Shown here: one piece after another, positions 6,745 through 50,732 of the stretch
Layout of the letters: each line of letters begins with the position of its first letter
How positions within the stretch are numbered: the stretch's first letter is position 1
Virus record (IMG/VR): IMGVR_UViG_3300044846_002555
Span: 78,860 to 142,859 of that record
Strand: one strand, 5' to 3'
From: a virus
DNA length: 64,000 nucleotides
Made by a program: the position numbers and the translations under genes
Notes under the pieces: model-generated
The model's database searches: none
What the model was told of the DNA's origin: nothing
What the model saw: only the letters and a program-made list of their open reading frames with translations

Positions 6745-9700
6745 TTACGTTCCGTAAACTATTTCAATACCTTCAATGTGTATAGTCCATCTTAAAGTTT
6801 CTCCAACAACACCGGTTACCTGTATGTCTAAAGCGTCATTAGTATCGTCAGCGGTAATTGCAACGTCATAAGATGAGTTAGTTTCTACATCAGTACCAAT
6901 AGTTGATACAGTACCGATTAAAGAAGTTACTCCACCTACATTCTTAATCGCAACTTTTCTTATATAGTGAGCTCCTCCTGAACCATCTGATTTAATACCA
7001 CCAATATTTACTGTAACAAACATTGCAGTTCCTGCAATTACGGATATAAGTTGAGTTGTTCCATCTAAAAATATATTAACTGGTGTCGCATTTGTTGTTT
7101 TATTTCTACCAACTAAGTCAATTTGTTGTGATGTTCCTTTTATTAAACCATTAAAACTACCTGAAGAAAAAGACCTTTGACCGAAACGAGGTGCACATGA
7201 TAATGTTCCACCAAGAATTGATGAATAACAACCTGTGGTAGTGTTGCCACAACCTCCACCAATAAATGAATGGGTACCACATGAAATATTTGATATACCA
7301 CCAACAATTGCCGAACAACCACTAAACACGACATTTCCATTACCACCACCAACAAAAGAACCTGATGAACAAACCCCATTTACGTTTCCACCAACAATTA
7401 CAGATAGGGTTGTACTTGATAATGCGGGTGTTGCAATACAGTTTGATTGACCACCACCAATAAAGTTAGAATCACCATGAGTTCTATTTGACATACCGCT
7501 AACAATTGCTGAGTATCCATATACCCATTGGCATGTAATACAGTTTCCATTACCCCCACCTATAAATGAAAAACTTAAACGAGTTGTATTATTATTACCC
7601 CCACCAATAAATGAAGAGTTTCCTATAGTAATATTACAATAACCACCACCAATTGTTGAACATCCCCCACTTGAATTATTCTTTTGACCACCACCAATTG
7701 TTGAAGTATCTCCTGATGAGATATTATTATATCCACCACTGATTGTTGAAGTGGCTCCTGATAAACGGTTTTTAGCTCCACCTCCAATTGTTGATATTCT
7801 ACCACATATCACATTACTATAACCACCACTAATTGTTGTGAAATAACATGATGATGATGTATTATCACAACCACCGGCAATTACCGAACAATTTCCACAA
7901 GCGCGATTTTTATATCCACCACCAATTGTTGAGGTAGCACCGGATGAGACATTACATCTACCACCAACAACAGTTGACCAACTACCTGAAGATAAATTAC
8001 AAACCCCACCACCAATTGTTGAACACGCCCCTGATGCGATGTTTCTATAACCTCCACTTATTGTTGATAATTTACCCGCATTAAATGTACAAGTTGGACT
8101 AGTCGTTACAGCTCCTGTTGTAAAGTTAAATGTTCCTCCACTAGTATTATTAAAAATACCACCACCGATAGTTGTACCTAAAGAACAACATTCGTTATTT
8201 GGTGATTGTATTCTATTATTAAGACCACCACCAATTGTTGAAAATCTTGCATTTATTATGTTAATACAACCACCACCAATTGTTGAAGTATAACCTGAAG
8301 AATTATTATTACTACCACCACCAACAGTTCCAAGTATTCCGTAGACACGATTGTCAATACCACCCCCAATTGTTCCACCATCACCAAAAATTCTTTGTGA
8401 TTGACCACCACTAATCGTTGCTCCTAAACAATACACAACATTTAATGCACCTCCTCCAATGGTTGAAGTATTTCCGCTGATTACATTATCAATTCCACCC
8501 CCAATGAATGAATCACTACCCGATACACTATTAGACCTACCACCACCAATTATTGAACATAAACCTGATGCGGTATTCTTACAGCCACCACCAACAAATG
8601 AACAATTTCCTGATGCGGTATTACAAAAACCACCTAAAATTGATGACCTTAAACCTGATGCGGTATTACATTGACCACCACTTACTGTTGAATAATTACA
8701 TGATGATATATTTTTAAAACCACCACCAATTGTTGAACAAACCCCTATGGCTTGATTACAAATTCCTCCGGCAATTGTTGAAGTAGTTCCTGTTGCGATA
8801 TTATTACATCCTCCCCCAATTGTTGAACTATTACCCACAACAAAATTTTTACAACCACCACCAATAAATGAATGGGTACTTGTTATAGTATTTTGACTAC
8901 CACCAACAATACTTGAAGTGGCTCCTGATACTGTATTACCAATACCTCCACCAATAAATCCTTGACAAAATCCACCTGAACTTGTTGTAAAATTTCGTAA
9001 AAATGGTTGTGAGGAAGAAAAAGGACTCACAGAGACAGTTGCACCACTAACATACAAGTTTGTATATGGTGAGGAATATGTTTGTCCTGTAATAACTACG
9101 TTTCTACTACATCCGAAGTTATCATATGTTAATAAAAGGTCGTTTACGCTAAATGATGATAATTGATTCCCGAACAATTGTAATGTACAAGTATTTGCGG
9201 AATATGAACTTATTAGTTGAGAATTGCCTATAAAGTTTAATGTTCCACCTCCAATTATAGAATGTCTTGCGTAACTTACGTTAACGCTTCCACCCCCAAT
9301 AACACCAAATTCTAACACAACTTTATTATTATTACCACTTACAATACCACCACCATAAGAACATTGAGCCAAACAGTTACCACATCCTCCTAAAATTGCT
9401 GCTCTAACTCCATATGTTTTATTAGCTGTTCCACCGGCTATAACACCATCTTCACCAACACCTGTTGTTCCTGATATTAAGTTACCTCTACCTCCACCAA
9501 TAAATCCGAATTCGTTACATATTTTATTATTTGTTCCACCTGCGATTACTGAATTTGATGGGTTCATTGTATTACTAGTTATACAATTGTAAAAACCACC
9601 ACCTATTGTAGAATATGTTCCACAAACGAGATTAAGTCTACCACCGGCAATTGTTGAGTTATTACAACATGTTGTATTACAACAACCACCACCAACAAAT

Positions 9701-11916
9701 GAAAAACATCCTGATGATGTATTTCCTAATCCACCACCAATAAATGAACAAGCACCACATGCACAATTTGATATACCACCACCAATCGTTGAATGACTTC
9801 CACATGATATATTAGACTCACCACCACCAATTGTTGAGTAATTACAATATGTTCTATTATACGAACCTCCGGCTATTGTTGAACAATTACCGTAAGTGCA
9901 ATTGTGATTACCGCCACCAATAAATGAATTATAACCTGACGATAAATTATTAGTACCATTACCAATAAATGAGTATTGACCACTAGCGACATTATAACTT
10001 CCCGCCCCAATAAATGACGAATAATTACTTGATGTATTACTTGAACCACCACCTATAAAAGATTTAATACCGCTAGCAGTATTTTGTTGACCTCCAACAA
10101 CACTTGACGCATTTCCACTTGCGGTGTTTAATACTCCCGCTCCAATAAACGAGCCGTATGAACCACTTGCGTTATTACAATAACCCCCACCGATAAATGA
10201 CCAATTTCCTGTTGATGTATTTTTACAACCACCACCAATAAATGAATGTGTTCCTCCACTAACTATATTTTGTCGTCCACCAACCACAACTGAAAAATCT
10301 GTTGTTGCAGAGTTTGATAAACCACCTAATACTGCACTACAATTTCCTGATGCAAGATTACTAACACCACATCTAACAGATGAGTTAACGCCTGTTCCTG
10401 TAATGATTACGGCTGATGAACCACCTCCACCACCGGCAATAGGTACTAAAAGTCCATTTGTACTAACTCCAACATAACAACCACTACAAGTACTCATAGA
10501 AGTAATAATCATGTCGTTAACAAATGTCGTACAATCTCTATTTGATGTTATATTTGAACCAATAATGAAAGATTCATTATTTGAAACCGTATTATTCACA
10601 CCTCCGGCTATAAAACTTCCAACACCAATGGCGTTATTTGTTCCACCACCAACTATTGATGAAAGAACACCACTTGCGGTATTTGAACCAAACGAATTCC
10701 CACCACCACCTACAAATGAACGATATCCTGATGCGGTATTACCGCAACCTCCACCAACAAAAGAACCATCACACGACGCGGTATTCTTACTACCACCACC
10801 AATTGTTGAGGTAGTACCTGATGCTATATTACAAAAACCACCACCTATTGTTGAATCATTACCTGATGATATGTTAATACGTCCACCACCAATGAATGAA
10901 CAAGTTCCTGATATTGAATTACATTGACCACCGGCAATTGTTGATTTATCACCACAAACGGTATTTGATTGACCACCTCCAATAGTTGAACTATCACAAT
11001 AAGCTTTATTACCACCACCTCCGGCAATTGTTGAGTTGTTGGATAAGGCTTGATTACAATAACCACCACCAACGGTTGCGTCACCATTATTTGGATATGG
11101 TCCGGTAACACAAGCTATATTATATCCACCACCTGCAATAGTATTTCTTGGTCCGACAACAAGATTACAACAACCACCACCTATTGTTGATGTATTTCCT
11201 GATATTCTATTTAAATGACCACCACCAATAAATGAATGAGTTCCTCCGCTAATAACGTTTTGACAACCTCCACCAATTGTTGCTCCGGATGTTGTTAATA
11301 TGTTACAAAATCCACCACTTATAGTTGAATCATTATTTGATACCGTATTACAACGACCACCTCCAATTATTGAGCAACAACCCGATACGACATTACAATA
11401 ACCACCACCAATTGATGAAATAAATCCTGAAACCTCATTTCTACATCCACCACCAATAATTGAGGCATTCCCTGACGCAGTATTTCTAGTACCACCACCA
11501 ACAGTTGAAGCGAAACTTCCTGATATATTACAACGACCACCACTTATTGTTGAATAACAACCTGCGTTATTATTTTTATAACCACCACCAATTAATGAAT
11601 GTGTTCCACCACTAACTATATTTTGTCGTCCACCAACAACCATTGAATAATTTGTTGTTGCTGAATTTGATAACCCTCCTAACGCGCCGGAATTATTACC
11701 ACATGCTAGATTATTAACATCTCTTCTAATTGATGAGTTAACACCTGTTCCACTTACAATTACAACAAATGGTGAACCACTAATTGCTTCGTCAATTGTT
11801 GATTTATATGATGAACCTGCAGGATTCTGAGTCGGGTTATTAGTATCAACAATGTGAATTAATGTTTGATTAGTTGTAAACCCTGATGGTGAATATGTTC
11901 TTTGAGTTAAAATCAT
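6745..11916 (-). CDS. Gly/Cys-rich repeat tail fibre / adhesin (beta-helix-like)
   Basis: dozens of ~14-aa S-x-I-G-G-G-x-x-N repeats; non-repeat C-terminal domain; TATTTAT upstream. Confidence 0.7.
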   Translation of the reverse strand: MILTQRTYSPSGFTTNQTLIHIVDTNNPTQNPAGSSYKSTIDEAISGSPFVVIVSGTGVNSSIRRDVNNLACGNNSGALGGLSNSATTNYSMVVGGRQNIVSGGTHSLIGGGYKNNNAGCYSTISGGRCNISGSFASTVGGGTRNTASGNASIIGGGCRNEVSGFISSIGGGYCNVVSGCCSIIGGGRCNTVSNNDSTISGGFCNILTTSGATIGGGCQNVISGGTHSFIGGGHLNRISGNTSTIGGGCCNLVVGPRNTIAGGGYNIACVTGPYPNNGDATVGGGYCNQALSNNSTIAGGGGNKAYCDSSTIGGGQSNTVCGDKSTIAGGQCNSISGTCSFIGGGRINISSGNDSTIGGGFCNIASGTTSTIGGGSKNTASCDGSFVGGGCGNTASGYRSFVGGGGNSFGSNTASGVLSSIVGGGTNNAIGVGSFIAGGVNNTVSNNESFIIGSNITSNRDCTTFVNDMIITSMSTCSGCYVGVSTNGLLVPIAGGGGGSSAVIITGTGVNSSVRCGVSNLASGNCSAVLGGLSNSATTDFSVVVGGRQNIVSGGTHSFIGGGCKNTSTGNWSFIGGGYCNNASGSYGSFIGAGVLNTASGNASSVVGGQQNTASGIKSFIGGGSSNTSSNYSSFIGAGSYNVASGQYSFIGNGTNNLSSGYNSFIGGGNHNCTYGNCSTIAGGSYNRTYCNYSTIGGGESNISCGSHSTIGGGISNCACGACSFIGGGLGNTSSGCFSFVGGGCCNTTCCNNSTIAGGRLNLVCGTYSTIGGGFYNCITSNTMNPSNSVIAGGTNNKICNEFGFIGGGRGNLISGTTGVGEDGVIAGGTANKTYGVRAAILGGCGNCLAQCSYGGGIVSGNNNKVVLEFGVIGGGSVNVSYARHSIIGGGTLNFIGNSQLISSYSANTCTLQLFGNQLSSFSVNDLLLTYDNFGCSRNVVITGQTYSSPYTNLYVSGATVSVSPFSSSQPFLRNFTTSSGGFCQGFIGGGIGNTVSGATSSIVGGSQNTITSTHSFIGGGCKNFVVGNSSTIGGGCNNIATGTTSTIAGGICNQAIGVCSTIGGGFKNISSCNYSTVSGGQCNTASGLRSSILGGFCNTASGNCSFVGGGCKNTASGLCSIIGGGRSNSVSGSDSFIGGGIDNVISGNTSTIGGGALNVVYCLGATISGGQSQRIFGDGGTIGGGIDNRVYGILGTVGGGSNNNSSGYTSTIGGGCINIINARFSTIGGGLNNRIQSPNNECCSLGTTIGGGIFNNTSGGTFNFTTGAVTTSPTCTFNAGKLSTISGGYRNIASGACSTIGGGVCNLSSGSWSTVVGGRCNVSSGATSTIGGGYKNRACGNCSVIAGGCDNTSSSCYFTTISGGYSNVICGRISTIGGGAKNRLSGATSTISGGYNNISSGDTSTIGGGQKNNSSGGCSTIGGGYCNITIGNSSFIGGGNNNTTRLSFSFIGGGNGNCITCQWVYGYSAIVSGMSNRTHGDSNFIGGGQSNCIATPALSSTTLSVIVGGNVNGVCSSGSFVGGGNGNVVFSGCSAIVGGISNISCGTHSFIGGGCGNTTTGCYSSILGGTLSCAPRFGQRSFSSGSFNGLIKGTSQQIDLVGRNKTTNATPVNIFLDGTTQLISVIAGTAMFVTVNIGGIKSDGSGGAHYIRKVAIKNVGGVTSLIGTVSTIGTDVETNSSYDVAITADDTNDALDIQVTGVVGETLRWTIHIEGIEIVYGT
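10256..11637. repeat. internal duplication in fibre gene (29-nt identical core at 10256-10284 and 11609-11637)
   Basis: ccactaactatattttgtcgtccaccaac occurs twice within ~170-nt similar segments that each start a repeat block. Confidence 0.85.
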
Positions 11917-23672: not shown

Positions 23673-26129
23673 ATGACAAACACTGATAAAAGATTATCAT
23701 CAATTTTAGTTGAGAAAGACGTTGAAAATATTTATCGACAATATTTAACCAAAAAGTTTGGGGATATTATTTTTAACTCACCATTTAAATGCGATGGATA
23801 TGGGGAATCCAAAAAACACAATATTAGACTTATTTGTGAATTCAAAGATATACTTGATTTAACCCTCAGAATAAATCAAATTAAATCATTGTGTCAAGCA
23901 TTATATTATATTAAAAAATTTGAAATTTCAGGTAAAATTTTACCTTCAGTTATTTTTATTGGTGACCGAAGTAAATGTTTTGCGATTCACACTAATGAAA
24001 TATTTAATTATTTAGGGATGGATTTTGATTGGTCTATTGCACCATCTAAATCTTATACTAATATTGAATTAGTTAATTTAATGATGGTGGATGAGAAAAT
24101 TAATCCACACATATTTGGTATTAAAGATATTGCAAATTGTGTTGATAAGATTAAAGACCTTAATGATGGTGTTAAGAGATTAATACCAATTACCCCACAT
24201 AATGTTACCGAAGTATTTAAACACTTTGAAGATAATGTTATTGGTACTCACAAATTAGATACTAATCAATTGGCTAATTTATTTGTACAGTTATTAGTAA
24301 ATCCTGATGAAAATTATCTTCATCCAGTTGTTCGTAGAAAAACTGTTGTGACTAAATCATTTCGTGAAGTAAATCTTAAAAATAGAGAAGTTTTTGTATC
24401 ATTTTTTTCACATTTTTCTCGTGAATATACCCCAAGTCAAAAAGAACATTTAACAGCTGTTGTTGACCGTTTAGTACAAGATATAACTCGTCGTAAACAA
24501 GGTGAGTTTTTTACCCCGACTATTTGGGTAAATAAAGCTCACGAATATATTGAGTCAGTTTATGGGGAAGATTGGAAAGAAAAATATGTGGTATGGGACC
24601 CAGCGTGGGGGACCGGTAATTTAACTCGTGATTATAGATTTAAAGAACTTTATGTGTCAACATTAAATTATAGTGATATTCAAACGGCAGAACAAATGGG
24701 TTTTAACCCGGAATCAATTAAGTTTCAGTCAGATTTTTTAAATGATGATTACAGTTATTTACCTAAAAAATTAAAAGACTCTATAGAAGGGGGTAAACCA
24801 ATTTTTATTTTATTAAATCCGCCCTATGTTGCATCAGCTAATTTTGGGGAAAGTGATAAAAAAGGTGCGTCACAAACAGTTACAAGTATTAATATGGTTA
24901 AAGATGGGTTTGGTAAATCGTCTCAAAATTTATACGCTCAGTTCCTTTATCAAATTTATAAATTAAAGGAAAAAAATAATAATATTAATATTGGGATTTT
25001 TTCACCTTCATTATTTTTTACAGGTTCAAGTTTTAAAATGTTTAGAAAAAAATTTTTTAATGAGTTCAAATATGAAAAAGGGTTTTTATTTGATGCGTCT
25101 AATTTTGACGATGTTTCAAAAGATTGGGGGATAAATTTTGTTTTATTCAGTAGTGGTATTAATGATTCAAATATTTTTAATTTAGATACAATTAAAAAAA
25201 ATAAAAATGATTTTTCATCTGAATTTAATGGTGATGAATATTCATTAGAAGTTATTGGTGATAAGACTTTATATAATTGTGACTCAAATGTTGCGGCATC
25301 TGAGTGGGTTAGGTCTGAAATAAAAAATATTAAAACAGATTCTTCTTTACCACAATTTCAAAACGCAACTAAATTAAGAACGCAAGGAAAACTTAGTGGT
25401 GGATATATTGAAGACTCGTTAGGTTATTTTTATAATAATTCAAATAATATTGACAAGAACAGTCAGAATGTTGCTATGTGGTCGGCAGGATTTTATGCTG
25501 GTCACGGAGTATCGGTTATTAATGAAAATTTTTATAAGTGTGTTTCATTATTCGCAGCAAGAAAATTAATATCTAAAAATTGGGAAAATTCTAAAGATGA
25601 ATATCTTTCACCAAATGAGAATTCGGACAATTATTTTCAATTCAAAATTGACTCTATAGTTCATTCTTTATTTCATATACATTCTTATCAATCTAGTTTA
25701 AGACAAGTAGCACATAATGACCAATTATGGGATATTAAAAATGAATTTTTTTGGATGAGTAAAAACGAAATGACAGGTTTTGCGAATCAAAATAATTACA
25801 CTGAGTTATACAATGATGTGAGAACTGATTCGGACCGTTATGTACACACTTTATTGTTTGGGGAAGATGGTGTTTATGAACAACTTTCAAACGAGGCTAA
25901 GGAAGTTTTAGATGCTGCGACTAATTTAGTTAGACTATCATTCGGAATGAGAAGAAATTTTGCTGATAACACAAATTATCTTAATAGTTGGGATGCTGGT
26001 TATGCTCAACTAAAGTTACTTTGGAAAGAATATTTTCCTGAACAATTTAAAGACTTTAGGGTAAAATATAAATTACTTGAAGATAAAATGAGACCAATGG
26101 TTTATGAATTAGGATTTTTATTACCATAA
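23673..26129 (+). CDS. type IIG-like fused endonuclease / N6-adenine methyltransferase
   Basis: N-terminal CDG...ICEFK PD-(D/E)XK-like motif; GEFFTP, DPAWGTGNL (motif I), NPPY (motif IV), NLYAQF. Confidence 0.75.
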   Translation: MTNTDKRLSSILVEKDVENIYRQYLTKKFGDIIFNSPFKCDGYGESKKHNIRLICEFKDILDLTLRINQIKSLCQALYYIKKFEISGKILPSVIFIGDRSKCFAIHTNEIFNYLGMDFDWSIAPSKSYTNIELVNLMMVDEKINPHIFGIKDIANCVDKIKDLNDGVKRLIPITPHNVTEVFKHFEDNVIGTHKLDTNQLANLFVQLLVNPDENYLHPVVRRKTVVTKSFREVNLKNREVFVSFFSHFSREYTPSQKEHLTAVVDRLVQDITRRKQGEFFTPTIWVNKAHEYIESVYGEDWKEKYVVWDPAWGTGNLTRDYRFKELYVSTLNYSDIQTAEQMGFNPESIKFQSDFLNDDYSYLPKKLKDSIEGGKPIFILLNPPYVASANFGESDKKGASQTVTSINMVKDGFGKSSQNLYAQFLYQIYKLKEKNNNINIGIFSPSLFFTGSSFKMFRKKFFNEFKYEKGFLFDASNFDDVSKDWGINFVLFSSGINDSNIFNLDTIKKNKNDFSSEFNGDEYSLEVIGDKTLYNCDSNVAASEWVRSEIKNIKTDSSLPQFQNATKLRTQGKLSGGYIEDSLGYFYNNSNNIDKNSQNVAMWSAGFYAGHGVSVINENFYKCVSLFAARKLISKNWENSKDEYLSPNENSDNYFQFKIDSIVHSLFHIHSYQSSLRQVAHNDQLWDIKNEFFWMSKNEMTGFANQNNYTELYNDVRTDSDRYVHTLLFGEDGVYEQLSNEAKEVLDAATNLVRLSFGMRRNFADNTNYLNSWDAGYAQLKLLWKEYFPEQFKDFRVKYKLLEDKMRPMVYELGFLLP

Positions 26130-32063: not shown

Positions 32064-33584
32064 ATGAAAAAATTAAATATAACTTATTTAGAAAAAATGA
32101 TTTCTAAAGTATTGAAAGAAAACTTAGGTGAAAAGGCGGAAACTTTAGTATCTAAAATTAAATCGTCTATTAAAGAAAATTCAGAAGTTTGTGAACAGTG
32201 TGGTGGTAATATGAATGAAGACGTTTGTGAACAGTGTGGTGGAAAAATGATGGATGAAGGGATTTATGATGTAGAAGACATCAATAATAAAGATGAATTT
32301 GATTATGTTCAAGAAGAAGAAGATATCGAAACAAATATGGAGAATGAGGAATCTTGTAAATACCATATGGATAACTTTGGTCCGGAGGATGAAAGAACTA
32401 AACAATTTTGTGGTGACTCAATGAATGAGGGGTTAAAAGGTCGTCAAAAAAAATTAGATAAAAACAAAAACAATAAAATTGATTCGGAGGACTTTAAACT
32501 TTTACGTAAAGAAAAAAAAGGAAATAGCATGAAATTTAAGGATAGACATGGTATGGAAGAAGGTAAACATTTTGGTTCATTTGATGACAACGAATGGATA
32601 GATGATAAAGACAGAATTTTTAACAATGATTTTGACTTTGATTATGATGAGGAAGAATTTAACGATTACCCATCATTCAAAGAAAAACATCCGGATTCTA
32701 AATGGTTTGGTGGTAAAGATTATTTTGACACTTACAAAAAACATCACAACCGTCCATTAAAAGTTAGAAGTAGAAAATTTGAAACAGATGAAGGTAATGC
32801 GTTTTCAGGAGCTTTAGCTGACGCTAAAAAAAGTAGTAGAGATTCTTTTGAAGTTGATGGTAAAAAATATCCGGTTAAAGAATCGGTTAGAATGACTGAA
32901 ACTGAGTTAGTTAATTTGATTGAAAAAATTATTTCAGAACAAAAATCAACAGATGTTAAAGACCCTGCGGAGAAAAATAATCTAAAAACTATTGGAAGTG
33001 CACCAGGGTTAGACAAATACAAACAAGTCCATAAAAAAGACGGTAAAGAAAATGAAGATAACCTTAAAGCTGTTGCTCAAAAAATGAAAGATTATTTGAA
33101 AGATGGGTCTAAAGGTGAATACGATACAAATCCAAAAATTTTCCCTAAAGGAAACGGGGAGTTAGCAAAAATGAGTAAGAAGGCGTATGTTCCATCAGGA
33201 GCGGTTGAAGATTATATTGATAACTTTACAGCGGCAGCTTTAGAGAATTTGGATTATGATGGTATAGAACCTAATGAAGAATGGGTGACTAATAACATAG
33301 AAGGTTCTTCAAAAACAGGTAATAATCCTGATTGGGCAAACACTGGCGAATCTGATGTTAATAAAAAACGTAATAAAATTAGAAAAGATAATTTATTAGG
33401 TAAACTTAAAAGAAAGGCTTATAACAAATCTCCTCAACCGGTTATCAATGATAAGTCGGGTGAAGATAAAGGAAGTGAGATTATGACTAAATTAGAATCG
33501 GTTAACGATAAAAAAACAAAACAAATTAATGAAGAGTTTGACAGAATGAAATCTTTAATGGGTTACAATCAAAAAACTCAATAA
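32064..33584 (+). CDS. modular protein, putative head-internal/scaffold-like
   Basis: repeated (L/I/M/V)-x-E sites, duplicated VCEQCGG, LDKNKNNKIDSEDF module; TATTTAT upstream. Confidence 0.55.
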   Translation: MKKLNITYLEKMISKVLKENLGEKAETLVSKIKSSIKENSEVCEQCGGNMNEDVCEQCGGKMMDEGIYDVEDINNKDEFDYVQEEEDIETNMENEESCKYHMDNFGPEDERTKQFCGDSMNEGLKGRQKKLDKNKNNKIDSEDFKLLRKEKKGNSMKFKDRHGMEEGKHFGSFDDNEWIDDKDRIFNNDFDFDYDEEEFNDYPSFKEKHPDSKWFGGKDYFDTYKKHHNRPLKVRSRKFETDEGNAFSGALADAKKSSRDSFEVDGKKYPVKESVRMTETELVNLIEKIISEQKSTDVKDPAEKNNLKTIGSAPGLDKYKQVHKKDGKENEDNLKAVAQKMKDYLKDGSKGEYDTNPKIFPKGNGELAKMSKKAYVPSGAVEDYIDNFTAAALENLDYDGIEPNEEWVTNNIEGSSKTGNNPDWANTGESDVNKKRNKIRKDNLLGKLKRKAYNKSPQPVINDKSGEDKGSEIMTKLESVNDKKTKQINEEFDRMKSLMGYNQKTQ

Positions 33585-35997: not shown

Positions 35998-36915
35998 ATG
36001 GAGAATTTTTATCAAACACTAGGTGTAAATGAAAACGCAACTCAAGATGAGATTAAGAAAGCATATCGTAAATTAGCGGTAGAACATCATCCGGACAAAG
36101 GTGGGAATGAAGATACTTTTAAAAAAATATCGCAAGCTTATGATACCGTAGGTGACGAAAGTAAAAGAAAACAATACGATAACCAAAGAAGTAACCCATT
36201 TTCTAATATGGGTGGAGGAGGGTTTAATCCTTTTGAAGATATGTTTCAAAATGGTTTTTACCAACAAAGAAGAAGAGCCGCTCCTGATAAAATTATTGAA
36301 GTTACCGTTGGTACAATACAATCTTATAATGGTTCAGAAAAAAGTTTTACGTATAATAGAAAACATAAATGTGAACCGTGTAATGGTAATGGTGGTGAAA
36401 GAATAAACTGTAATTCGTGTGGAGGTGAAGGATTTATTACACAAAGAGTTGGTTCAGGATTATTTGTTCAACTTGTAAGACAAACTTGTAATTCGTGTGG
36501 TGGTAAAGGATTTTCGTATAAAACAGTTTGTGGTTCGTGTAATGGTGAGACAACAGTAACTAAACCTGAGACAATTACTATTAAACTTCCTCACGGTATA
36601 GATGAAGGTCAATTTTTAAAACTACAGGGTAAAGGTGACTATGTGAATGGTGTTTATGGTAATTTAGTTATCAAAGTTAAAGTAACGTCAGAAGATAATT
36701 TTGAAAAATCAGGTGATGATTTAATATATAATGCGTATTTTGATTTGAATACGATTAAGAATGAAAAGTTAGATATTAAACATCCAAAAGGTACGATGTC
36801 TATAAAATTACCTGAAGAGTTTGATACAGAAAAACCCCTTCGAGTAAAATCAAAAGGGTTTCATAATACGGGGGATTTATTTGTTAAGTTACACGTTAAA
36901 TTTAAACGAACTTAA
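35998..36915 (+). CDS. dnaJ: DnaJ chaperone
   Basis: HPD J-domain, G/F linker, four CxxCxGxG-type repeats. Confidence 0.93.
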
Positions 36916-37115: not shown

Positions 37116-37208
37116 AGTAATATATTTTAAATAAATATAATAAAAAATATTTGAAAGAGAAACTTGCTTTTTAACTTTTTATTTCTTATACTTAAAAAAA
37201 AGAAAATT

Positions 37209-38057
37209 ATGGCATTATCGTACATCGGAGGTAAATCAAAAATAGGTAAATGGATTGTTCCATTCATACCTCAAGATATTGAAACATACATTGAACCATT
37301 TTCAGGTATGTTTTGGGTATTTTTTAATATGGACTTAACAAAGTACCCAAACTTAAAGAACGTTGTTTACAACGACTTTAATCCACTAAACTACAATTTA
37401 TTTCAATGTCTTCAGAATCCGGAAAGATTATTAGAAGAAGTGAATAATATTCCTTGTCAACAAAGGAATGAGTTTCCGACACCGGAGATATATAAAGAAC
37501 AATTTATCAGGTTCCAAGCTGAAATATTTGAAACCAATTTCAGCGTACAAGCTTACGATTATGTGGTTGCTGCTAAATACGCTTATGTATTGGCTCAGGT
37601 ATTCTCAGGGTCTAAACCTGAAACAAGTTCATTTATTGATTTGAAAGGTAAGTATAAATCAAAGTATCTTACATTCAGAGATAAATTATCTAAACCGGAT
37701 TGGGTAGAACACTTTTTAAAAATTACTCACGTTGAGAATATGGACTTCCAAGACGTTATCCAAAAATATGATGGACCATCAACATATGTTTATGCTGACC
37801 CCCCATATTGGAAGACAGAGAACTATTACAACAACCACGACTTTGATAGTAAAGACCATGAGAGATTGGCGGATTGTCTAAAAGGTATTCAGGGTAAGTT
37901 TTCATTATCCTATTATGATTTCCCACAATTACATACTTGGTTTCCACCTCTTCAGTATGTTTGGGAGAAGAAAGAATTTGCTAAGGCGGCGGCTGCGAAG
38001 AAAGGTAAAACACAAAATATGGGGGAAGAACTCCTTATTATGAATTACCAAAAATAA
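37209..38057 (+). CDS. D12-class (Dam-like) N6-adenine DNA methyltransferase
   Basis: YIGGKS, YIEPFSG, YND, DPPY; start MALSY. Confidence 0.85.
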   Translation: MALSYIGGKSKIGKWIVPFIPQDIETYIEPFSGMFWVFFNMDLTKYPNLKNVVYNDFNPLNYNLFQCLQNPERLLEEVNNIPCQQRNEFPTPEIYKEQFIRFQAEIFETNFSVQAYDYVVAAKYAYVLAQVFSGSKPETSSFIDLKGKYKSKYLTFRDKLSKPDWVEHFLKITHVENMDFQDVIQKYDGPSTYVYADPPYWKTENYYNNHDFDSKDHERLADCLKGIQGKFSLSYYDFPQLHTWFPPLQYVWEKKEFAKAAAAKKGKTQNMGEELLIMNYQK

Positions 38058-38163: not shown

Positions 38164-39540
38164 ATGAGACTAACTAACACATTATCAACTTTAATTACAG
38201 AACAATCGCGTTTCCAAGTGTTATATGACAAATTGGTGAAACCTTCTGACAAGCCAACAAGACCGGGTGAAAAACCTAAAGGTGCGATGGATTTTGAAAC
38301 ATTAAAGGCCATTATACTTGCTGACCCGACTACAATCGTTCCTGAAGGAATGGACATTGATACAATTTCTTTAGAGGATATGGAAAAAGTTAAAGTTGGG
38401 AAATACTCTCAATGGCTACTTAAAAACTTCATAAAACCGGTATTTACCGATGAGAAAGCTGGTTTAGAACCGGGAACACCTGAATATAAAAAGGCGGCTC
38501 AAGAGTATAGAAGATTATTCTTGGAGGATTTATATAAGGTAACTTCTGACTTAAGAAAATACGAAAAAGTTAAACAATACTTACCTCAAGAGGCAAGAGA
38601 TATTAACAAAGTAACTGCGGCTGAGTTATTCAAATTATTGGATGAGTTTGTAATGCCGGAGAAAAAACAAAAAGAATTAGAGAAGAAGGTAGCTAAGAAG
38701 ACCCGAGAAGGATTTAATCACGCAGGTGGTGAGATTGTATGGGAAGGTCCAAATTGGACTATGATTAGAATCTCTGATAAAGGTGAGGTAGGGAAAGACG
38801 CTGCGGTTTATTACGGTGGATTCCACGAATATGACCAAGGAGAATCAAGATGGTGTACATCATCACCTGGTTTAACATACTTCAATGGGTATATCAAAGA
38901 TGGTCCATTATATGTTGTATTCCCTAATGACGATAAAGGTGAGGTTGGGTTAAAAACCGGTTTACCAAAAGAAAGATATCAATTCCACTTCCCATCTAAC
39001 CAATATATGGATAGAACGGATAGACAAATTAACTTGGTTGAATACTTGAATGGTCCTATGTCGGAACTTAAAGATTTCTTCAAACCTGAATTTGCTAAAG
39101 GATTGGTTAAAGCGGGGACAAGTGATGTTGTAGATATTTCTTATCCTGATAACGCAGCTGGTAAATTCGTTGCATTATATGGTTTTGATGAATTGTTTGA
39201 AAGTTTACCTGATACTATTGTTAGATTATTAATCAGTAATAAATCAAATGAGAATATTGCTTTAGATGTTCCGGAATCAATCGGTAGATTTAAAAACTTA
39301 CAAGCGTTAAAATTAGAGAAAATTTGTAGAACTATTCCAAGTTCAGTTTGTGAATTAAAAGAATTGAATTTCTTGGCTCTACCAAATAACAAAGATTTAA
39401 AATCTTTACCTGAATGTTTAATCAACTTAACTGATTTAGCGTTTATCAATTTAAAAGATAGTAACCCAAATGTTGAAATCCCACCAAAATTAAAGGAGAG
39501 ATTGACAGACGAAGGAATGGGATTCTATTATTTTGACTAG
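38164..39540 (+). CDS. protein with WCT motif domain and C-terminal leucine-rich repeats
   Basis: SRWCTSS...GPLYV...YQFHF; LRRs VPESIGRFKNLQAL, IPSSVCELKELNFL, LPECLINLTDL. Confidence 0.65.
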   Translation: MRLTNTLSTLITEQSRFQVLYDKLVKPSDKPTRPGEKPKGAMDFETLKAIILADPTTIVPEGMDIDTISLEDMEKVKVGKYSQWLLKNFIKPVFTDEKAGLEPGTPEYKKAAQEYRRLFLEDLYKVTSDLRKYEKVKQYLPQEARDINKVTAAELFKLLDEFVMPEKKQKELEKKVAKKTREGFNHAGGEIVWEGPNWTMIRISDKGEVGKDAAVYYGGFHEYDQGESRWCTSSPGLTYFNGYIKDGPLYVVFPNDDKGEVGLKTGLPKERYQFHFPSNQYMDRTDRQINLVEYLNGPMSELKDFFKPEFAKGLVKAGTSDVVDISYPDNAAGKFVALYGFDELFESLPDTIVRLLISNKSNENIALDVPESIGRFKNLQALKLEKICRTIPSSVCELKELNFLALPNNKDLKSLPECLINLTDLAFINLKDSNPNVEIPPKLKERLTDEGMGFYYFD

Positions 39541-42292: not shown

Positions 42293-42569
42293 GTTATTAA
42301 TTCTTTTCACTATGAAAGGTTGTCCTTATTGTGATATGATGAAGGAACAACTTATTAAAAATGATATTGGATTTGTTATAAGAGATATTGATGAACATAA
42401 AGATGAATATGATATGTTTGTCGAAGTAACTGAAAACGAATTTGTCCCAGCTTTTATGATTGTTGAATCTCCGGATGAATCACCTAAAAGTTATTTATAC
42501 GCACCTGAAAGAGATTTTGATGAAATTGATGAAGGTGTTGAAATAATTAAAGAACATTTTAAAAAATAA
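42285..42569 (+). CDS. glutaredoxin-like protein
   Basis: GCPYC, FVPAF. Confidence 0.82.
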   Translation: MDKLLILFTMKGCPYCDMMKEQLIKNDIGFVIRDIDEHKDEYDMFVEVTENEFVPAFMIVESPDESPKSYLYAPERDFDEIDEGVEIIKEHFKK

Positions 42570-42570
42570 A

Positions 42571-42594
42571 AAAATCCCCTTAATTGGGGATTTT
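42571..42594. terminator. bidirectional terminator
   Basis: aaaatcccc/ggggatttt stem between convergent genes. Confidence 0.75.
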
Positions 42595-42598
42595 CTAT

Positions 42599-43423
42599 TT
42601 AGAATAGTATAAGGTCTTTTATTTTATCTTTAATTAACCAAGGTTTGATATCTAAGGGTTTTAGTAAGTCATCCAAAATATTATAATCTTTAATGGTGTT
42701 ATTAAATTTTAACATATCAAAATCAAATACATCCAAAATCATTGAGGTAATATTTTTTGTCGGGTGTATGCTATTAGAAACTATCTTGATGTTATAATCC
42801 TCTGTTTCATCAAGAACTACCGAAGAGTATTCAAATGTTATTTGATTTGTTAATAGGGTATCAAATAATTGATTACAAATATATTCTGAATAGTATAATT
42901 CTTGTCTTCCCATACTCAAACTATACCCGTGAGGAAATTCCGAAGATATATTCAATGGTGAATAGGTGTAGAAACTTAAATTAGAAGTGTTGTCTTCAGA
43001 ATAATCTAATTCATATTCCATTCTGTTGGTGTAGGAGATGGTATTATATTTTGGTTGAATTGGGTCGTTGATTGCATCAATAATTGACTGATGATATATT
43101 GGTCTTGATGAGTTGTAAAAGTCAAACATGTGATAAAACTTTTTAACCAACTCTTGTTCATACATTATTAAATCAATAATGTTAATGTGTGAGTAACCAA
43201 AATCGGTTAATAGTGTTTCGTATTCACTTACAAAGTTATCTTTAACTTGGACCATGTCCAAAATTTTGGAAGATGAGGTCATTCCGTTAACCACCAAAAA
43301 TTTACCACAATCGGTAACTTCAATAACAACATCGTGTTGATTGGTTTTGTTTATCTCTTTTACTAAAAAGTCCGAGAATAGATTTACAATCCCTTTGTTT
43401 GATTTTTCATTAAAGTATTTCAT
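42599..43423 (-). CDS. degenerate S-adenosylmethionine synthetase (MetK)-like protein
   Basis: manual alignment to MetK N- and C-terminal domains; catalytic motifs absent. Confidence 0.55.
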   Translation of the reverse strand: MKYFNEKSNKGIVNLFSDFLVKEINKTNQHDVVIEVTDCGKFLVVNGMTSSSKILDMVQVKDNFVSEYETLLTDFGYSHINIIDLIMYEQELVKKFYHMFDFYNSSRPIYHQSIIDAINDPIQPKYNTISYTNRMEYELDYSEDNTSNLSFYTYSPLNISSEFPHGYSLSMGRQELYYSEYICNQLFDTLLTNQITFEYSSVVLDETEDYNIKIVSNSIHPTKNITSMILDVFDFDMLKFNNTIKDYNILDDLLKPLDIKPWLIKDKIKDLILF

Positions 43424-43471
43424 ATTTTTAAATTATACGAAATGATATGTAAAATAAAATTAATTATAAAT

Positions 43472-43495
43472 AAAAAAGGGACAAAAAGTCCCTTT
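43472..43495 (-). terminator. intrinsic terminator
   Basis: aaagggac/gtcccttt stem with an A-tract on the plus strand. Confidence 0.65.
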
Positions 43496-43515: not shown

Positions 43516-43674
43516 TTATTTTTTAGTGTAATATCTCTCAACAACTTTACGGATAGATTCTTGTATTGGCTGAGTTTTTGGAGCTTGAGCCTGAACCTGC
43601 TGTAGAGTTTGAGATTGACTTGATTGTTGTGTCGTTTGTGTTTGTTGTGCTTTGTTTTTACATCCGCAACCCAT
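43516..43674 (-). CDS. 52-aa MGCGCK, Gln-rich protein (not in ORF track)
   Basis: MGCGCKNKAQQTQ...IQESIRKVVERYYTKK*; own TATTTAT (43703-43709) and terminator. Confidence 0.7.
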   Translation of the reverse strand: MGCGCKNKAQQTQTTQQSSQSQTLQQVQAQAPKTQPIQESIRKVVERYYTKK

Positions 43675-43765
43675 GATTATTTTTATTTAAACGTTTATAA
43701 CCATAAATATCATATATAATGATAATATGTAAATATATTTTATATCTTTGTGTATATTTATTGAT

Positions 43766-45130
43766 ATGAGTGGTAAAATAATTTTAACGAATAAAGATTT
43801 ACATCAGATTGTAAAACAAATCAAAGAACAAGTTGAGGGTGATTATTATAAGATATCGCCTGAAGAATATATACAATTAATGTCTTTAGGTAGTTATCAC
43901 GGAAAAGCGATAACTAAAATGAGAAAGTTTCAAGGTAAACCATTATGGATAACCGGGGACTTAAATCTATCTAGTACTCCAACAGATAGTTTAGGTAATG
44001 TCGGTTATGTTGATGGAAGTTTAAATATCTCATATACTAAAGTGTCTAGCATAGAAGGAACTAATGTTAAAGGGTGGGTTGCTGATTCTAATTCACCTCG
44101 TGAAAGAATTAGAGAGAAACAAGAACTCAATGCTAAATTAGCTCAACAGGATATACTTCGTGATAATAATGAATGGGATTTTAAAAATGGTGATGAGACC
44201 GGAGAAAAGGCTCAAGCGTTATTTGAAAATTTAATTAATAATGGTGAGATTGACCTGTTATCCGACGAGGACAAAGAAAAATTAACAATTTTGAGACGTA
44301 AACTTCAAGATTTGGAACAAGAGTATGAGGGGCTTGATGATAATGATGATAGAGCATATGAAGTTCAAGAAGCTATTGATGAAACTCAATCGGAAATTGA
44401 TGAGTTAGAAGAAAATGATGCGGATGTTTATATGATGTATCCACAACCAAGATATACTCATTATGGGTTAACACAATTTGAGGTTTTAATACCTGGTTTC
44501 AAAAATAATGAATATACTGTTGGAACTGAAGAAGAGATGGATGATGCGGCATTACAATATGCTAAAAATTATGTTGATGATGTGGGGGCGGATGGATTTA
44601 ATGAATCATTTATTGAAGATTATTTAGATGTTGATGCTATTGTTAATATGGCTGAAGAGGATTATGATTATCAAGTTAGAGATTATCCTGATAGTTATTT
44701 CAGTGATAGTGATTATGAGTTGACCTATGAACAAGAACAAAGAATAGAACAACTTGAATCTCAAATAGAAGATTTAGAACAACAAAAACTTGAATTGGAT
44801 TCAGATGACGAAAATTATTATGACTACGAAGAGGATTTAGATAATCAAATTGAAGCTCTTCAAGAAGAGTTAGATAGTATTGAAGTTGATACCGAACCAA
44901 CTGAAGAAATGATTGAGAATAAAGTTAATGAATTAGTCAGAGACGTAAGAAGAGACCCGTTAGATTATCTTAAAAACTATGGTTTAGATATTAAAGAATA
45001 TATTGATGAAGATGCTTTAGCTCAAGGGTTAGTTGATTCTGATGGTTGGGGTGTTATGAATAGTTATGACGGTCAATACGATAGTGAAGAAGTTAATGGT
45101 GTGACATATTATATAATGAGAACTAACTAA
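43766..45130 (+). CDS. acidic coiled-coil protein
   Basis: start MSGKIIL just after TATTTAT; ITGDLNLS/VDGSLNIS LRR-like units; very D/E-rich. Confidence 0.6.
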   Translation: MSGKIILTNKDLHQIVKQIKEQVEGDYYKISPEEYIQLMSLGSYHGKAITKMRKFQGKPLWITGDLNLSSTPTDSLGNVGYVDGSLNISYTKVSSIEGTNVKGWVADSNSPRERIREKQELNAKLAQQDILRDNNEWDFKNGDETGEKAQALFENLINNGEIDLLSDEDKEKLTILRRKLQDLEQEYEGLDDNDDRAYEVQEAIDETQSEIDELEENDADVYMMYPQPRYTHYGLTQFEVLIPGFKNNEYTVGTEEEMDDAALQYAKNYVDDVGADGFNESFIEDYLDVDAIVNMAEEDYDYQVRDYPDSYFSDSDYELTYEQEQRIEQLESQIEDLEQQKLELDSDDENYYDYEEDLDNQIEALQEELDSIEVDTEPTEEMIENKVNELVRDVRRDPLDYLKNYGLDIKEYIDEDALAQGLVDSDGWGVMNSYDGQYDSEEVNGVTYYIMRTN

Positions 45131-46856: not shown

Positions 46857-47429
46857 ATGGCAAATGTAATGACAACATATGTTAAGATTGTTAATCTTAA
46901 CGAAGAAACGTTTTTAAAATTTATTGATTTATTTAAAACTGAAAATGACAATAGTTCTTATGTAGAATTAGTAAATCATTTTAATAAATTATTTGATGAG
47001 AAATTTAGTGAACCGGATAATGTTATGAACCGAGAATGGATGGAACAAAACATTGGTTCAAAGTGGATTACCGTTGAATTTGGCGATGATGGATATACAC
47101 CTGAAGTTGATGTGATAATCGAAAGTGCTTGGAGTGTTCCTACGGAATATATTCAAAAAGTGGTTGAGGTTTTAAATCGGATGAATAAAGATATTGTCGC
47201 TTATGGTACATACGAAGATGAAGGATTCTCACCTATCGGAGCGTTTGTTTACGGATATGATTATGATGATATTGAAGATTACGATGAAGAAGTTGATTTT
47301 GATGAAATGATGAATGACGACGAGTATCATGAAAAAACATATGATGAACTATATTCATTAAGAGATAGTTTATATAATTCATATCTTGAAGCAAAAAAAG
47401 AAAGAGAAGAAGATGATAGAAACGGGTAA
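46857..47429 (+). CDS. hypothetical protein (ferredoxin-like-fold candidate)
   Basis: NIGSKW, ESAWSVP, YEDEG. Confidence 0.55.
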   Translation: MANVMTTYVKIVNLNEETFLKFIDLFKTENDNSSYVELVNHFNKLFDEKFSEPDNVMNREWMEQNIGSKWITVEFGDDGYTPEVDVIIESAWSVPTEYIQKVVEVLNRMNKDIVAYGTYEDEGFSPIGAFVYGYDYDDIEDYDEEVDFDEMMNDDEYHEKTYDELYSLRDSLYNSYLEAKKEREEDDRNG

Positions 47430-48276
47430 AATTATTAATGGGGATTGTATTGAGGTAATGAAAACTTTTCCGGAAGGTTCAATTGATTTATTGGTAACCT
47501 CACCGCCATATAACGTAAATATTGCTTATGATGTTCATAAGGATGATTTATCAATGGATGAGTATTATGAATGGACGAAAAACTGGTTGAGAGAAGCGTT
47601 ACGAGTATTAAAAGATGATGGTAGAATTGCTGTTAATGTTCCAAATGAATTGAATGTTCAAGAAAGAGGTGGTAGAATTTTATTCGTTGCTGAGTTTTGG
47701 ATGATGATGAAAGAAGTTGGGTTTAAGTTTAGTGGGTTAGTTGACCTTACAGAAAATAGTCCACACAGAGTTAGACAAACGGCTTGGGGTTCTTGGATGA
47801 GTGCGTCGGCACCTTATGTGTACAATCCAAAAGAATGTGTGATTATTGCTTATAAGAAAAGTAGTAAGAAATTAACTAAAGGAATATCACAATGGTTGGG
47901 AACACCAACTGAAGTTACTAATGAAGATGGTAAAGTTAGAACCAAGATGGTTTATCAGGACGAAGACAAGAAAGAGTTTATGAATTTGGTGTTTGGACGA
48001 TGGGAATATTTTGCGGATACTAGGTCATTAACAAAGGCTACATTCTCAATGGATATTCCTGCAAAGGCGATTAAGATATTGTCATATAAGAACGACATTG
48101 TTCTTGACCCATTTATGGGTAGCGGAACTTCAGCGTTCGCTGCGGAATTATTGGACCGAAGATGGTTGGGAATCGAGTTATCACCGGCTTATACGGAAAT
48201 TGCGAGAAAAAGAGTCCAAGCATTAATTGATGAACGGAAACAAATGAAATTAGAATTAAAAGAAGAGGAGGTTTAA
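47413..48276 (+). CDS. beta-class N4-C/N6-A DNA methyltransferase
   Basis: GDCIE, TSPPYN before DPFMGSGT, GIELS. Confidence 0.9.
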   Translation: MIETGKIINGDCIEVMKTFPEGSIDLLVTSPPYNVNIAYDVHKDDLSMDEYYEWTKNWLREALRVLKDDGRIAVNVPNELNVQERGGRILFVAEFWMMMKEVGFKFSGLVDLTENSPHRVRQTAWGSWMSASAPYVYNPKECVIIAYKKSSKKLTKGISQWLGTPTEVTNEDGKVRTKMVYQDEDKKEFMNLVFGRWEYFADTRSLTKATFSMDIPAKAIKILSYKNDIVLDPFMGSGTSAFAAELLDRRWLGIELSPAYTEIARKRVQALIDERKQMKLELKEEEV

Positions 48277-49328: not shown

Positions 49329-50732
49329 ATGAAAAAACTTATAAAAGAAAGTGGGATAAGAGATATTAATGCTCTTGCAAAACGATACCCCAAAGCGGAA
49401 ATATATTTTCACCAAGATTTAGATGGGGTGACTACGGCTATTGCTATGAGAGAATATCTTGAAAACAATGGTATTAAAGTAGTGGGTGCTCACGTCATTC
49501 AATATGGTGATAAAGAATTTGCAGTAAAGAAGAATGATGCTAAAGGTGATGTGATGCCGGTCTTGGTTGACTTTGCTCACGGAAAACCAATGTTTGTTAT
49601 TCATACTGACCACCACGATAGACAAGCTGGTGCGGAAGACACAAAATCAACTTCTTTTAGACAATCTCGTTCCAATGTTGAAACCATCTCACAGGTTGTT
49701 TCACCAAAGGAATTATTTCCATCTTCAGATATTTTATTGATATCAACTGTGGATTCTGCAAATTATGCGGTAAACAATATTACGGTTGACCAAGTTATTT
49801 CTTATTTATTTAAATTAGATAAGGATAAATCATTGGAGAAAAATAAAATGTTAATGGGTTTAGTTGTTAACAAATTATTATTGGCGTTTAAAAACAAGCC
49901 AGGGTTTTTAGAAACATTGGTTATGGAATGTTCACCATCATTATTGAATATCTTAAACACCATTAAAAGAATAATGGTTGAAAAAGGTTATGCAAAACCG
50001 GAGGAACTTGAAAAGAACAAAGAGGATTACGTTAAGTCAATGCAGACCAACCCAAATGTTAAAGTAATGGATAACGTTATTGTTCAATATGGTGGTGGGT
50101 CAATGTTTAAACCGGGTTCTTATGATAGATATACGCCATTTAAAAACAATCCTGAAGCTGATTTTATTGTGATTGCTTGGCCGTTAGGGTTAGTTCAAGC
50201 GTCTTGTAATCCATTCAAAGGCGAGAGACAATTAAAAGGTGTGAATTTAGGTGAGATTGCTCAAGAAGTATTATCTAAATGGGAGGACCAATTAAAACAA
50301 AGAGAGATACCATTGTCAACTATTAAATGGGTTTCTGAATCTTCAAAAGATTTTAATCAGGAATCGACAGGGTTTACATTTAAAGATTTTGTTGCTTTAT
50401 ATGGTAAAGAATATAAGACAATGGAAGATGGTAGAGAAAAATTATATCACATTGGTGAAATGATGGAAATGCCTTTTTCTGAATTACCTGAAGAACATAG
50501 AAAAATGTTGGATGACATTAAAGTTAATGCTTGGGATTTCATTCAATCAAATAGTGGTGGACACAAATGTATCACAAACATATCAGGTTTAAACTTTATG
50601 GGTAGAAGTACTAGACCACCAAAAGGTAGTACTAGATATAATGAAGCCGAAGATTCACCTTCAGTTAAGTTTACCAAAATGATTCAGAATGAGTTTGTGA
50701 AAGTATTACAGGAAAAGATAAATCAATCGTAA
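49329..50732 (+). CDS. DHH-family phosphoesterase
   Basis: HQDLDG, VDF, TDHH, SGGH. Confidence 0.75.
   Translation: MKKLIKESGIRDINALAKRYPKAEIYFHQDLDGVTTAIAMREYLENNGIKVVGAHVIQYGDKEFAVKKNDAKGDVMPVLVDFAHGKPMFVIHTDHHDRQAGAEDTKSTSFRQSRSNVETISQVVSPKELFPSSDILLISTVDSANYAVNNITVDQVISYLFKLDKDKSLEKNKMLMGLVVNKLLLAFKNKPGFLETLVMECSPSLLNILNTIKRIMVEKGYAKPEELEKNKEDYVKSMQTNPNVKVMDNVIVQYGGGSMFKPGSYDRYTPFKNNPEADFIVIAWPLGLVQASCNPFKGERQLKGVNLGEIAQEVLSKWEDQLKQREIPLSTIKWVSESSKDFNQESTGFTFKDFVALYGKEYKTMEDGREKLYHIGEMMEMPFSELPEEHRKMLDDIKVNAWDFIQSNSGGHKCITNISGLNFMGRSTRPPKGSTRYNEAEDSPSVKFTKMIQNEFVKVLQEKINQS

Follow-up and report, generated by a model that had tools for sequence, protein, structure and literature searches.

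The 64,000-nucleotide stretch of viral DNA analysed here (hereafter the window; positions 78,860 to 142,859 of IMG/VR record IMGVR_UViG_3300044846_002555) carries on its reverse strand a gene for a protein of 274 amino acids (aa), which we identify as a viral, non-catalytic pseudoenzyme descended from MetK, the S-adenosylmethionine (SAM) synthetase, with a three-repeat α/β fold. The source record is 142.9 kb long, with a CheckV completeness of 46% and a G+C content of 31%. An initial annotation, made from the letters and translations of the window, had proposed a catalytically dead, shortened relative of MetK, and this proposal was borne out by profile comparison, hidden Markov model (HMM) searches and fold evidence.

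Predicted fold

Fold searches were decisive in assigning the predicted structure to the superfamily of MetK and the methionine adenosyltransferases (MATs). The AlphaFold2 model of the 274-aa protein, computed from an alignment of 59 family sequences, had a predicted local distance difference test score (pLDDT) of 94.6 and a predicted template modelling score (pTM) of 0.91. A Foldseek search of the PDB, which the initial annotation had named as a check on the likeness to MetK, returned 151 matches at E ≤ 1e-3; all those listed were MetK/MAT structures, the best with E = 1.2e-11 and a probability of 1.0. Comparison with 48,161 chains using VIA-align placed two bacterial MATs at Z = 16.7 and 16.6, with 263–268 residues aligned (263 of 274 at Z = 16.7), followed by an archaeal MAT at Z = 9.9 and the next unrelated fold at Z = 5.0. 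The nearest model in the ESM Atlas was also a MAT (TM 0.71), and an Atlas feature search gave no usable match. In BFVD, the sole match was one uncharacterised member of the same family. The result extended to the most divergent and shortest member of the family (229 aa, 22% identical), for which the model reached a pLDDT of 90 and again matched only MATs. A nucleic-acid-binding protein of the KH or OsmC type was also considered and rejected, with Z of only 4–5 over one repeat and an acidic isoelectric point; the latter, at 4.5–5.8, argues against nucleic-acid binding.

Sequence relationship to MetK

Single-sequence searches gave no indication of this kinship. The 274-aa protein alone returned nothing significant from Pfam, PHROGs, NCBIfam or PDB sequences, BLASTP against E. 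coli MetK was not significant, and family profiles had no match among PDB sequences. We compared profiles by hhalign, using 59 diverse family members against 29 MetKs. The MetK profile consisted of E. coli MetK (annotated K-12 record) and 28 diverse MetKs from viral contigs; a homologue search from E. coli MetK had given a set too narrow for a profile, with a single MetK at 63% identity and all the others at 87% or above. Over the whole protein the two profiles aligned with P = 5e-4, and a permissive realignment placed family residues 10–271 collinear with MetK residues 17–377. The C-terminal half aligned to MetK 251–377 with P = 2e-4 and a score of 34.1, against a maximum of 18.3 over 40 column shuffles. 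The N-terminal half, aligned to MetK 16–139, was marginal when taken alone (P = 0.03; 19.8 versus a shuffle maximum of 19.3), with the register as expected. Reciprocal HMM searches matched dozens of members in two blocks, family residues 15–90 to MetK 20–95 and family residues 164–240 to MetK 271–347, with full-sequence E-values down to 1e-6 in a 29-sequence target set. Sequence homology to the N- and C-terminal Pfam domains of MetK is detectable and collinear, if marginally so for the N-terminal half.

Library models pointed to the same enzyme. PF02773, the C-terminal domain of MetK, was the only recurrent Pfam family among the 59 members (six matches, best E = 0.003). The curated metK model of NCBIfam, TIGR01034, was the sole match for two divergent members, one for each block: the third repeat of P0130 (E = 8e-5) and residues 16–92, in the first repeat, of P0159 (E = 0.012). 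Curated cut-offs were not reached, the best member scoring 21.7 bits against 309 for TIGR01034, and matches to PF02773 reaching at most 14.5 bits against 25.

The alignment that the initial annotation had made by eye was in the correct register, since hhalign reproduced it from the 59-sequence family and 29-sequence MetK profiles. The recovered pairs (family first, MetK second) include RQELYYSEYICNQL with RSAAYAARYVAKNI, IVNLFSD.. with IADQISD.., FLVVNGMT with MVLVGGEI, ILDVFDF with VREFFDL, and PWL with PWE.

Anatomy and loss of catalysis

The protein can be divided into three repeats (Table 1), which differ in how much of MetK they retain. The first and best conserved carries S-(R/K)-x-G-x-V-N where MetK has GHPDK. 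The second accounts for much of the variation in the family, with 26–42% gaps at residues 121–150; it is partly deleted in shorter members and further eroded in the 229-aa member. At about 65 residues, and with both the GAGDQG loop and the hairpin of MetK residues 229–250 gone, it falls short of a full-size Pfam M domain. The extent of trimming had accordingly been described only partly correctly: the protein is indeed shortened, at 274 aa versus 384 aa for E. coli MetK, but its middle repeat is shrunken and not wholly missing. In the third repeat, the most conserved motif of the family, SEFPHGYS (S 96%, F 89%, P 100%, G 98%, S 86%), is the remnant of the HGGGAFSGKD triphosphate loop of MetK, minus seven residues including Lys265. 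Here hhalign paired H165 and G166 with MetK H258 and G259, and R173 with R273.

Relative to E. coli MetK, the deleted segments are 105–118 (GAGDQG), 142–160, 187–212, 229–250 (carrying Phe230, Asp238, Arg244 and Lys245), 262–268 (FSGKDP of the triphosphate loop, with Lys265) and 356–363. The ~110 residues lost are those of the loops and helices from which MetK constructs its active site. We tabulated the fate of 15 catalytic and substrate-binding residues on the hhalign alignment (among them His14, Asp16, Lys165, Asp238, Arg244, Lys245, Lys265, Lys269 and Asp271). Six were deleted, eight were replaced by residues that the family does not conserve, and Glu42 is kept in only part of the family (Q/E). 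The alignment and this table agree with the earlier statement that GHPDK, GAGDQG and GGGAFSGKD are all absent. Eight of the 88 MetK-invariant positions are kept (S24, D25, G55, F124, H258, G259, R273 and Y277), and these are plausibly structural. Because the catalytic and substrate-binding residues are deleted or replaced, the protein cannot synthesise SAM by the MetK mechanism. Assignment as an active SAM synthetase (TIGR01034 equivalog; EC 2.5.1.6) was rejected, as catalytic residues, motifs, cut-offs and middle domain all fail.

Table 1 Features of the MetK-like gene and of other genes in the window (window coordinates)
Feature	Position	Strand	Description and basis
MetK-fold pseudoenzyme coding sequence	42599..43423	-	274 aa, ATG start, stop codon 42599-42601; open reading frame (ORF) list and translation
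First repeat, residues 1-90	43154..43423	-	beta-alpha-beta-beta-alpha-beta; equivalent of Pfam S-AdoMet_synt_N; highest conservation within the family
Shrunken middle repeat, residues 91-157	42953..43153	-	beta-alpha-beta-beta-beta, second helix lost; secondary structure
Third repeat, residues 158-274	42602..42952	-	Complete; equivalent of Pfam S-AdoMet_synt_C
SEFPHGYS, residues 161-168	42920..42943	-	Most conserved family motif; alignment and conservation
Terminator-like hairpin	42569..42596	-	Directly 3' of the MetK-like stop codon; 11-bp stem followed by a T run; pattern scan
TATTTAT promoter-like motif	43466..43472	-	49 nt 5' of the MetK-like ATG, adjoining the intergenic hairpin
Symmetric hairpin	43475..43495	either	Terminator-like for either strand; between the 52-aa ORF and the MetK-like gene; pattern scan
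Conserved 52-aa ORF	43516..43674	-	Upstream of the MetK-like gene on the same strand; tblastn synteny at 77/80 loci
Eco57I-type DNA methylase	23673-26129	+	SAM-dependent
DnaJ	35998-36915	+	J domain, CXXCXGXG zinc domain and C-terminal domain; same neighbour in relative L165
Dam/D12-class DNA methylase	37164-38057	+	SAM-dependent
N6_N4-class DNA methylase	47386-48276	+	SAM-dependent

A large family under purifying selection

Relatives of the 274-aa protein number 414 when clustered at 90%; each is about 272 aa long and none has a name. An hmmsearch of 1.84 billion representatives (E ≤ 0.001) yielded 228 clusters at 50% identity. Among the 150 matches listed of these 228, lengths ranged from 47 to 277 aa, with full-length members at ~220–277 aa; none of the 150 was of MetK length, and all belonged to the family itself. 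The relationship to MetK lies beneath the reach of a database-wide HMMER search. The median ratio of nonsynonymous to synonymous substitution rates (dN/dS) was 0.115 across 165 informative pairs, and the 274-aa ORF is a real gene under strong purifying selection. Library scans of Pfam, PHROGs and NCBIfam held no model of the family's own (a PHROG scan of the 59 members gave no recurrent family), and megablast and tblastn searches of 50,697 deposited phage records, using the MetK-like gene and two neighbours, found no relative and no cultured member. Longer or fused forms of the family were looked for and none was found, which is weak evidence.

Neighbourhood and phage lineage

By tblastn synteny, the same neighbourhood was present at 80 related viral loci. 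It begins with genes for a leucine-rich repeat protein, o96, o581, o106, thioredoxin and glutaredoxin, all directed toward the MetK-like gene, continues on the opposite strand with the MetK-like gene itself and the 52-aa ORF, and then passes to the gene for a hyper-acidic protein of 460 aa, followed by o255 and the remaining genes. The convergent glutaredoxin and thioredoxin neighbours are kept even in members only 22–26% identical; an operon uniting them with the MetK-like gene was rejected because the genes are convergent. The MetK-like gene is an old, syntenic core gene of an uncultured phage lineage with genomes of ~280–320 kb, the complete relatives measuring 282–322 kb and two of them having terminal repeats. 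Six-frame scans of five complete relatives' genomes (96–100% complete) found no genuine MetK; PF02773 matches were weak, occurred in two of the genomes and all fell on the MetK-like genes.

TATTTAT occurs no more than 120 nt upstream of 42 of the 146 genes of the record, with a peak at 20–29 nt and a chance expectation of about 8, and TATTTAT(A) probably serves as a promoter element particular to this phage, giving very short leaders. Given this genome-wide enrichment and the hairpin-adjacent copy listed in Table 1, the MetK-like gene is probably served by a promoter of its own, belonging to the class that is common in the phage. Window regions 6745–11916, 32064–33584 and 38164–39540 are examples of the TATTTAT(A) enrichment. 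Shine-Dalgarno motifs are depleted (3 of 125 genes of the record versus a background of 8%) and upstream regions are A-rich. Few Shine-Dalgarno motifs and A-rich leaders are typical of Bacteroidota and their phages.

The 52-aa ORF has MGCGCK as its invariant N-terminus, then a low-complexity linker rich in Q, T and P, and finally a conserved C-terminal segment, IQESIRKVVEKYY, which across relatives takes the form of a conserved helix, ...IQESI(R/K)KVVEKYY; an NCBIfam scan of this ORF gave no match. In some relatives a gene for a GIY-YIG-type homing endonuclease of ~195 aa lies between the 52-aa ORF and the MetK-like gene, inserted ~260 nt upstream of the latter (loci L082, L088, L093, L103–L106, L129, L137 and L156), and the junction is therefore a mobile-element insertion site. 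In a divergent sub-clade (L151–L153, L155 and L158), a protein of ~273 aa with an HExxH-like motif, YHE(L/I)(L/M/T)H, replaces the 52-aa ORF directly upstream. The gene for the hyper-acidic, coiled-coil-like 460-aa protein (window 43748–45130, forward strand) is divergent from the 52-aa ORF and was found at 80 of the 80 loci; its product had only weak SMC-like coiled-coil matches. Further along, a 467-aa protein (49329–50732, forward strand) showed a weak match to the N-terminal domain of DHH-family phosphoesterases (E = 1e-4, below cut-off).

Three DNA methyltransferases are encoded in the 64-kb window (Table 1), implying heavy self-methylation and a demand for SAM. The phage also encodes a glutaredoxin and an SbcC-like exonuclease. 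With relatives of 282–322 kb, DnaJ, glutaredoxin, an SbcC-like gene and few Shine-Dalgarno motifs, these phages are probably 'moraphage'-like and infect freshwater Flavobacteriia/Bacteroidota, a likeness drawn from description and not from sequence. Their source we take to be freshwater. Moraphages have been described as freshwater phages of 200–307 kb with Bacteroidota hosts, DnaJ/DnaK, a core glutaredoxin and an SbcC-like exonuclease (PMC12619734); that paper does not mention a MetK-like gene.

A conserved face and its possible function

Conservation across the family is concentrated in the first repeat (on both sheet faces), the SxFPxGxS loop, R173/Y177/Y178 and the segment S227–F235. The third repeat is polar on its outer sheet face, and residues there vary. 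In MetK, the structural central domain consists of the first Pfam domain together with the segment preceding the third helix; it supplies the core of the dimer interface and also floors the active-site cleft. Because conservation maps to these central-domain and dimer-face segments, we favour, by a little better than an even chance, a module that binds without catalysis through its conserved ex-active-site face, its partner being either a second copy of itself or the host MetK. On this account, a protein of MetK descent that has kept the three-repeat fold while shedding active-site loops and helices would bind through the face formed by the conserved first repeat and SxFPxGxS loop, pairing with its own second copy or with the enzyme of the host. 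Two considerations weigh against it. The conserved face was assigned from strand alternation and the published domain layout of MetK, not from model coordinates, and the conserved polar residues N14, D18, D84, Y88, S161, S168, R173, S227, D231 and D234 could just as well make up a new site, either catalytic or for a small molecule.

That the partner is specifically the host SAM synthetase, bound as a heterodimer via the retained central-domain face so as to control SAM supply, is possible but doubtful; such a protein could act as a poison of SAM-dependent defences or, in the manner of a prozyme, boost SAM supply for the three DNA methylases of the phage. Each active site of MetK, an obligate dimer, is built from both subunits. 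A dominant-negative poison, the main idea of the initial annotation, would form an inactive mixed dimer through its flat sheet face, SAM would fall, and type I restriction–modification and BREX would fail. The MetK fold along the whole length, the position of the conserved part, which corresponds to the core of the dimer face in MetK, and the lack of a MetK in the five complete relatives' genomes are all consistent with this idea. The T3 SAMase (SAM lyase, gp0.3) sets a precedent for a phage that gains from inhibiting MetK: by binding the enzyme and inhibiting it, SAMase overcomes BREX (bioRxiv 10.1101/2023.02.27.530186; PDB 8bb1). SAM starvation would, however, hurt the three DNA methylases of the same window, and a syntenic core gene with members down to 22% identity is unlike typical accessory counter-defence genes. 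Moreover, sequences in the family diverge widely, in contrast to the high conservation of MetKs (profile members from diverse viral contigs are 54–84% identical to E. coli MetK), only 8 of 88 MetK invariants survive, and the interface loops that bear the active site (105–118, 229–250 and 262–268) have been deleted, so that we consider poisoning distinctly unlikely. Erosion of the interface counts in the same way against a positive modulator, a dead homologue that would bind host MetK and raise or deregulate its SAM output, for example by relieving product inhibition. The three methylases make a demand for SAM plausible, and dead paralogues that activate their enzyme are on record for the AdoMetDC prozyme of T. 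brucei (PMC5201418) and for deoxyhypusine synthase (PMC3663545). Phages that require more SAM, however, commonly just encode an active MetK of their own (IMG/VR has at least 547 MetK-encoding stretches), and a mixed dimer would be without the partner's half of each active site; we regard this role as very improbable.

Explanations that dispense with the host enzyme differ in how they account for the conserved residues. A neofunctionalised enzyme or small-molecule binder would use a remodelled cleft (SxFPxGxS, D84, Y88, R173, S227, D231 and D234) for a ligand that has no connection with SAM synthesis. Those residues that the family conserves most are indeed polar and lie in the triphosphate-loop remnant and adjacent elements, purifying selection is strong, and the neighbours include nucleotide and redox metabolism genes, among them those for thioredoxin and glutaredoxin. 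Few conserved residues are charged, however, with no conserved Lys, His or Glu among them; the neighbours are convergent and hence form no operon with the gene, and no fused form points to a pathway (a weak argument). Overall, we judge a new ligand site unlikely. Core-gene status, together with a promoter-like TATTTAT motif common to many large, possibly structural genes, would also suit a structural or assembly protein of the virion, in which the MetK fold was exapted as a building block, a role also raised in the initial annotation, but the gene lies among DNA-metabolism and redox genes and outside any recognisable morphogenesis block, and fold matches to baseplate and needle proteins are weak (Z ~4) and cover one repeat only, which leaves a virion role improbable. 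Chance resemblance without kinship to MetK is refuted for practical purposes: it could appeal to the lack of any Pfam, PDB-sequence or BLASTP match to MetK for the 274-aa protein alone, and to the 150 listed profile-search matches, all of 277 aa or less and none of MetK length, but it is contradicted by fold matches (Z = 16.7, E = 1e-11) that are exclusive to MATs in two independent models and by collinear profile and HMM matches for both halves.

Comparison with known systems

The closest known relatives of the putative binding module are the bacterial and eukaryotic MetK/MAT enzymes (PF00438 + PF02772 + PF02773; TIGR01034), with which it shares the three-repeat beta-alpha-beta-beta-alpha-beta fold, a collinear register and the eight kept invariants. 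The phage protein differs from these in being ~12% identical, 110 residues shorter and shrunken in its middle repeat, and in having lost GHPDK, GAGDQG and GGGAFSGKD. Archaeal-type MAT (M. jannaschii, PDB 7p82) belongs to the same fold class (Z = 9.9, 237 residues aligned) but is a remoter match than bacterial MetK and, unlike the phage protein, an active enzyme. Full-length MetKs encoded by phages as auxiliary metabolic genes are likewise viral genes of MetK descent; these, however, are 50–84% identical to E. coli MetK, have ~360–420 aa and keep all motifs, whereas the dead, trimmed family sits in phages without an active MetK. One full-length MetK homologue on a viral contig (L010:1501-2640) has a single in-frame stop, which could mark a pseudogene, be a recoded codon or stem from a sequencing error.

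With T3 SAMase the phage protein would have only the hypothesised outcome in common, that is, phage interference with host SAM synthesis by binding MetK. SAMase has an unrelated fold and is an active SAM-cleaving enzyme encoded by an accessory early gene of a small phage; the SAM lyase fold was not found in our searches, the matched chain of PDB 8bb1 being the MetK chain. The likeness to the dead regulatory paralogues of AdoMetDC and deoxyhypusine synthase cited above is conceptual, lying in a pseudoenzyme that keeps the fold and oligomerisation surface of an enzyme of SAM/polyamine metabolism which is itself an obligate oligomer. Those paralogues are cellular, encoded in the same genome as their partner and much closer to it in sequence, whereas the only possible enzyme partner of the phage protein is that of the host. 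Our literature search found no described MetK-like or MAT pseudoenzyme, and to our knowledge the MetK fold has been described only in active SAM synthetases.

Implications

These findings describe a large, deeply diverged and strongly selected family that keeps the fold of an essential enzyme while discarding its chemistry, and that has become fixed as a core gene in a lineage of giant phages, providing a clean model for the viral exaptation of such a fold. For the hundreds of metagenomic hypothetical proteins that belong to this family and have no library name, 'MetK-fold pseudoenzyme, non-catalytic' offers an annotation. If the protein does make contact with host MetK, it would provide a new handle on SAM-dependent phage defence and on phage DNA methylation; and if it forms a heterodimer with MetK, it would be the first viral 'MetK pseudoenzyme', representing a new viral control of a central metabolite and the first non-catalytic function of the MetK fold.

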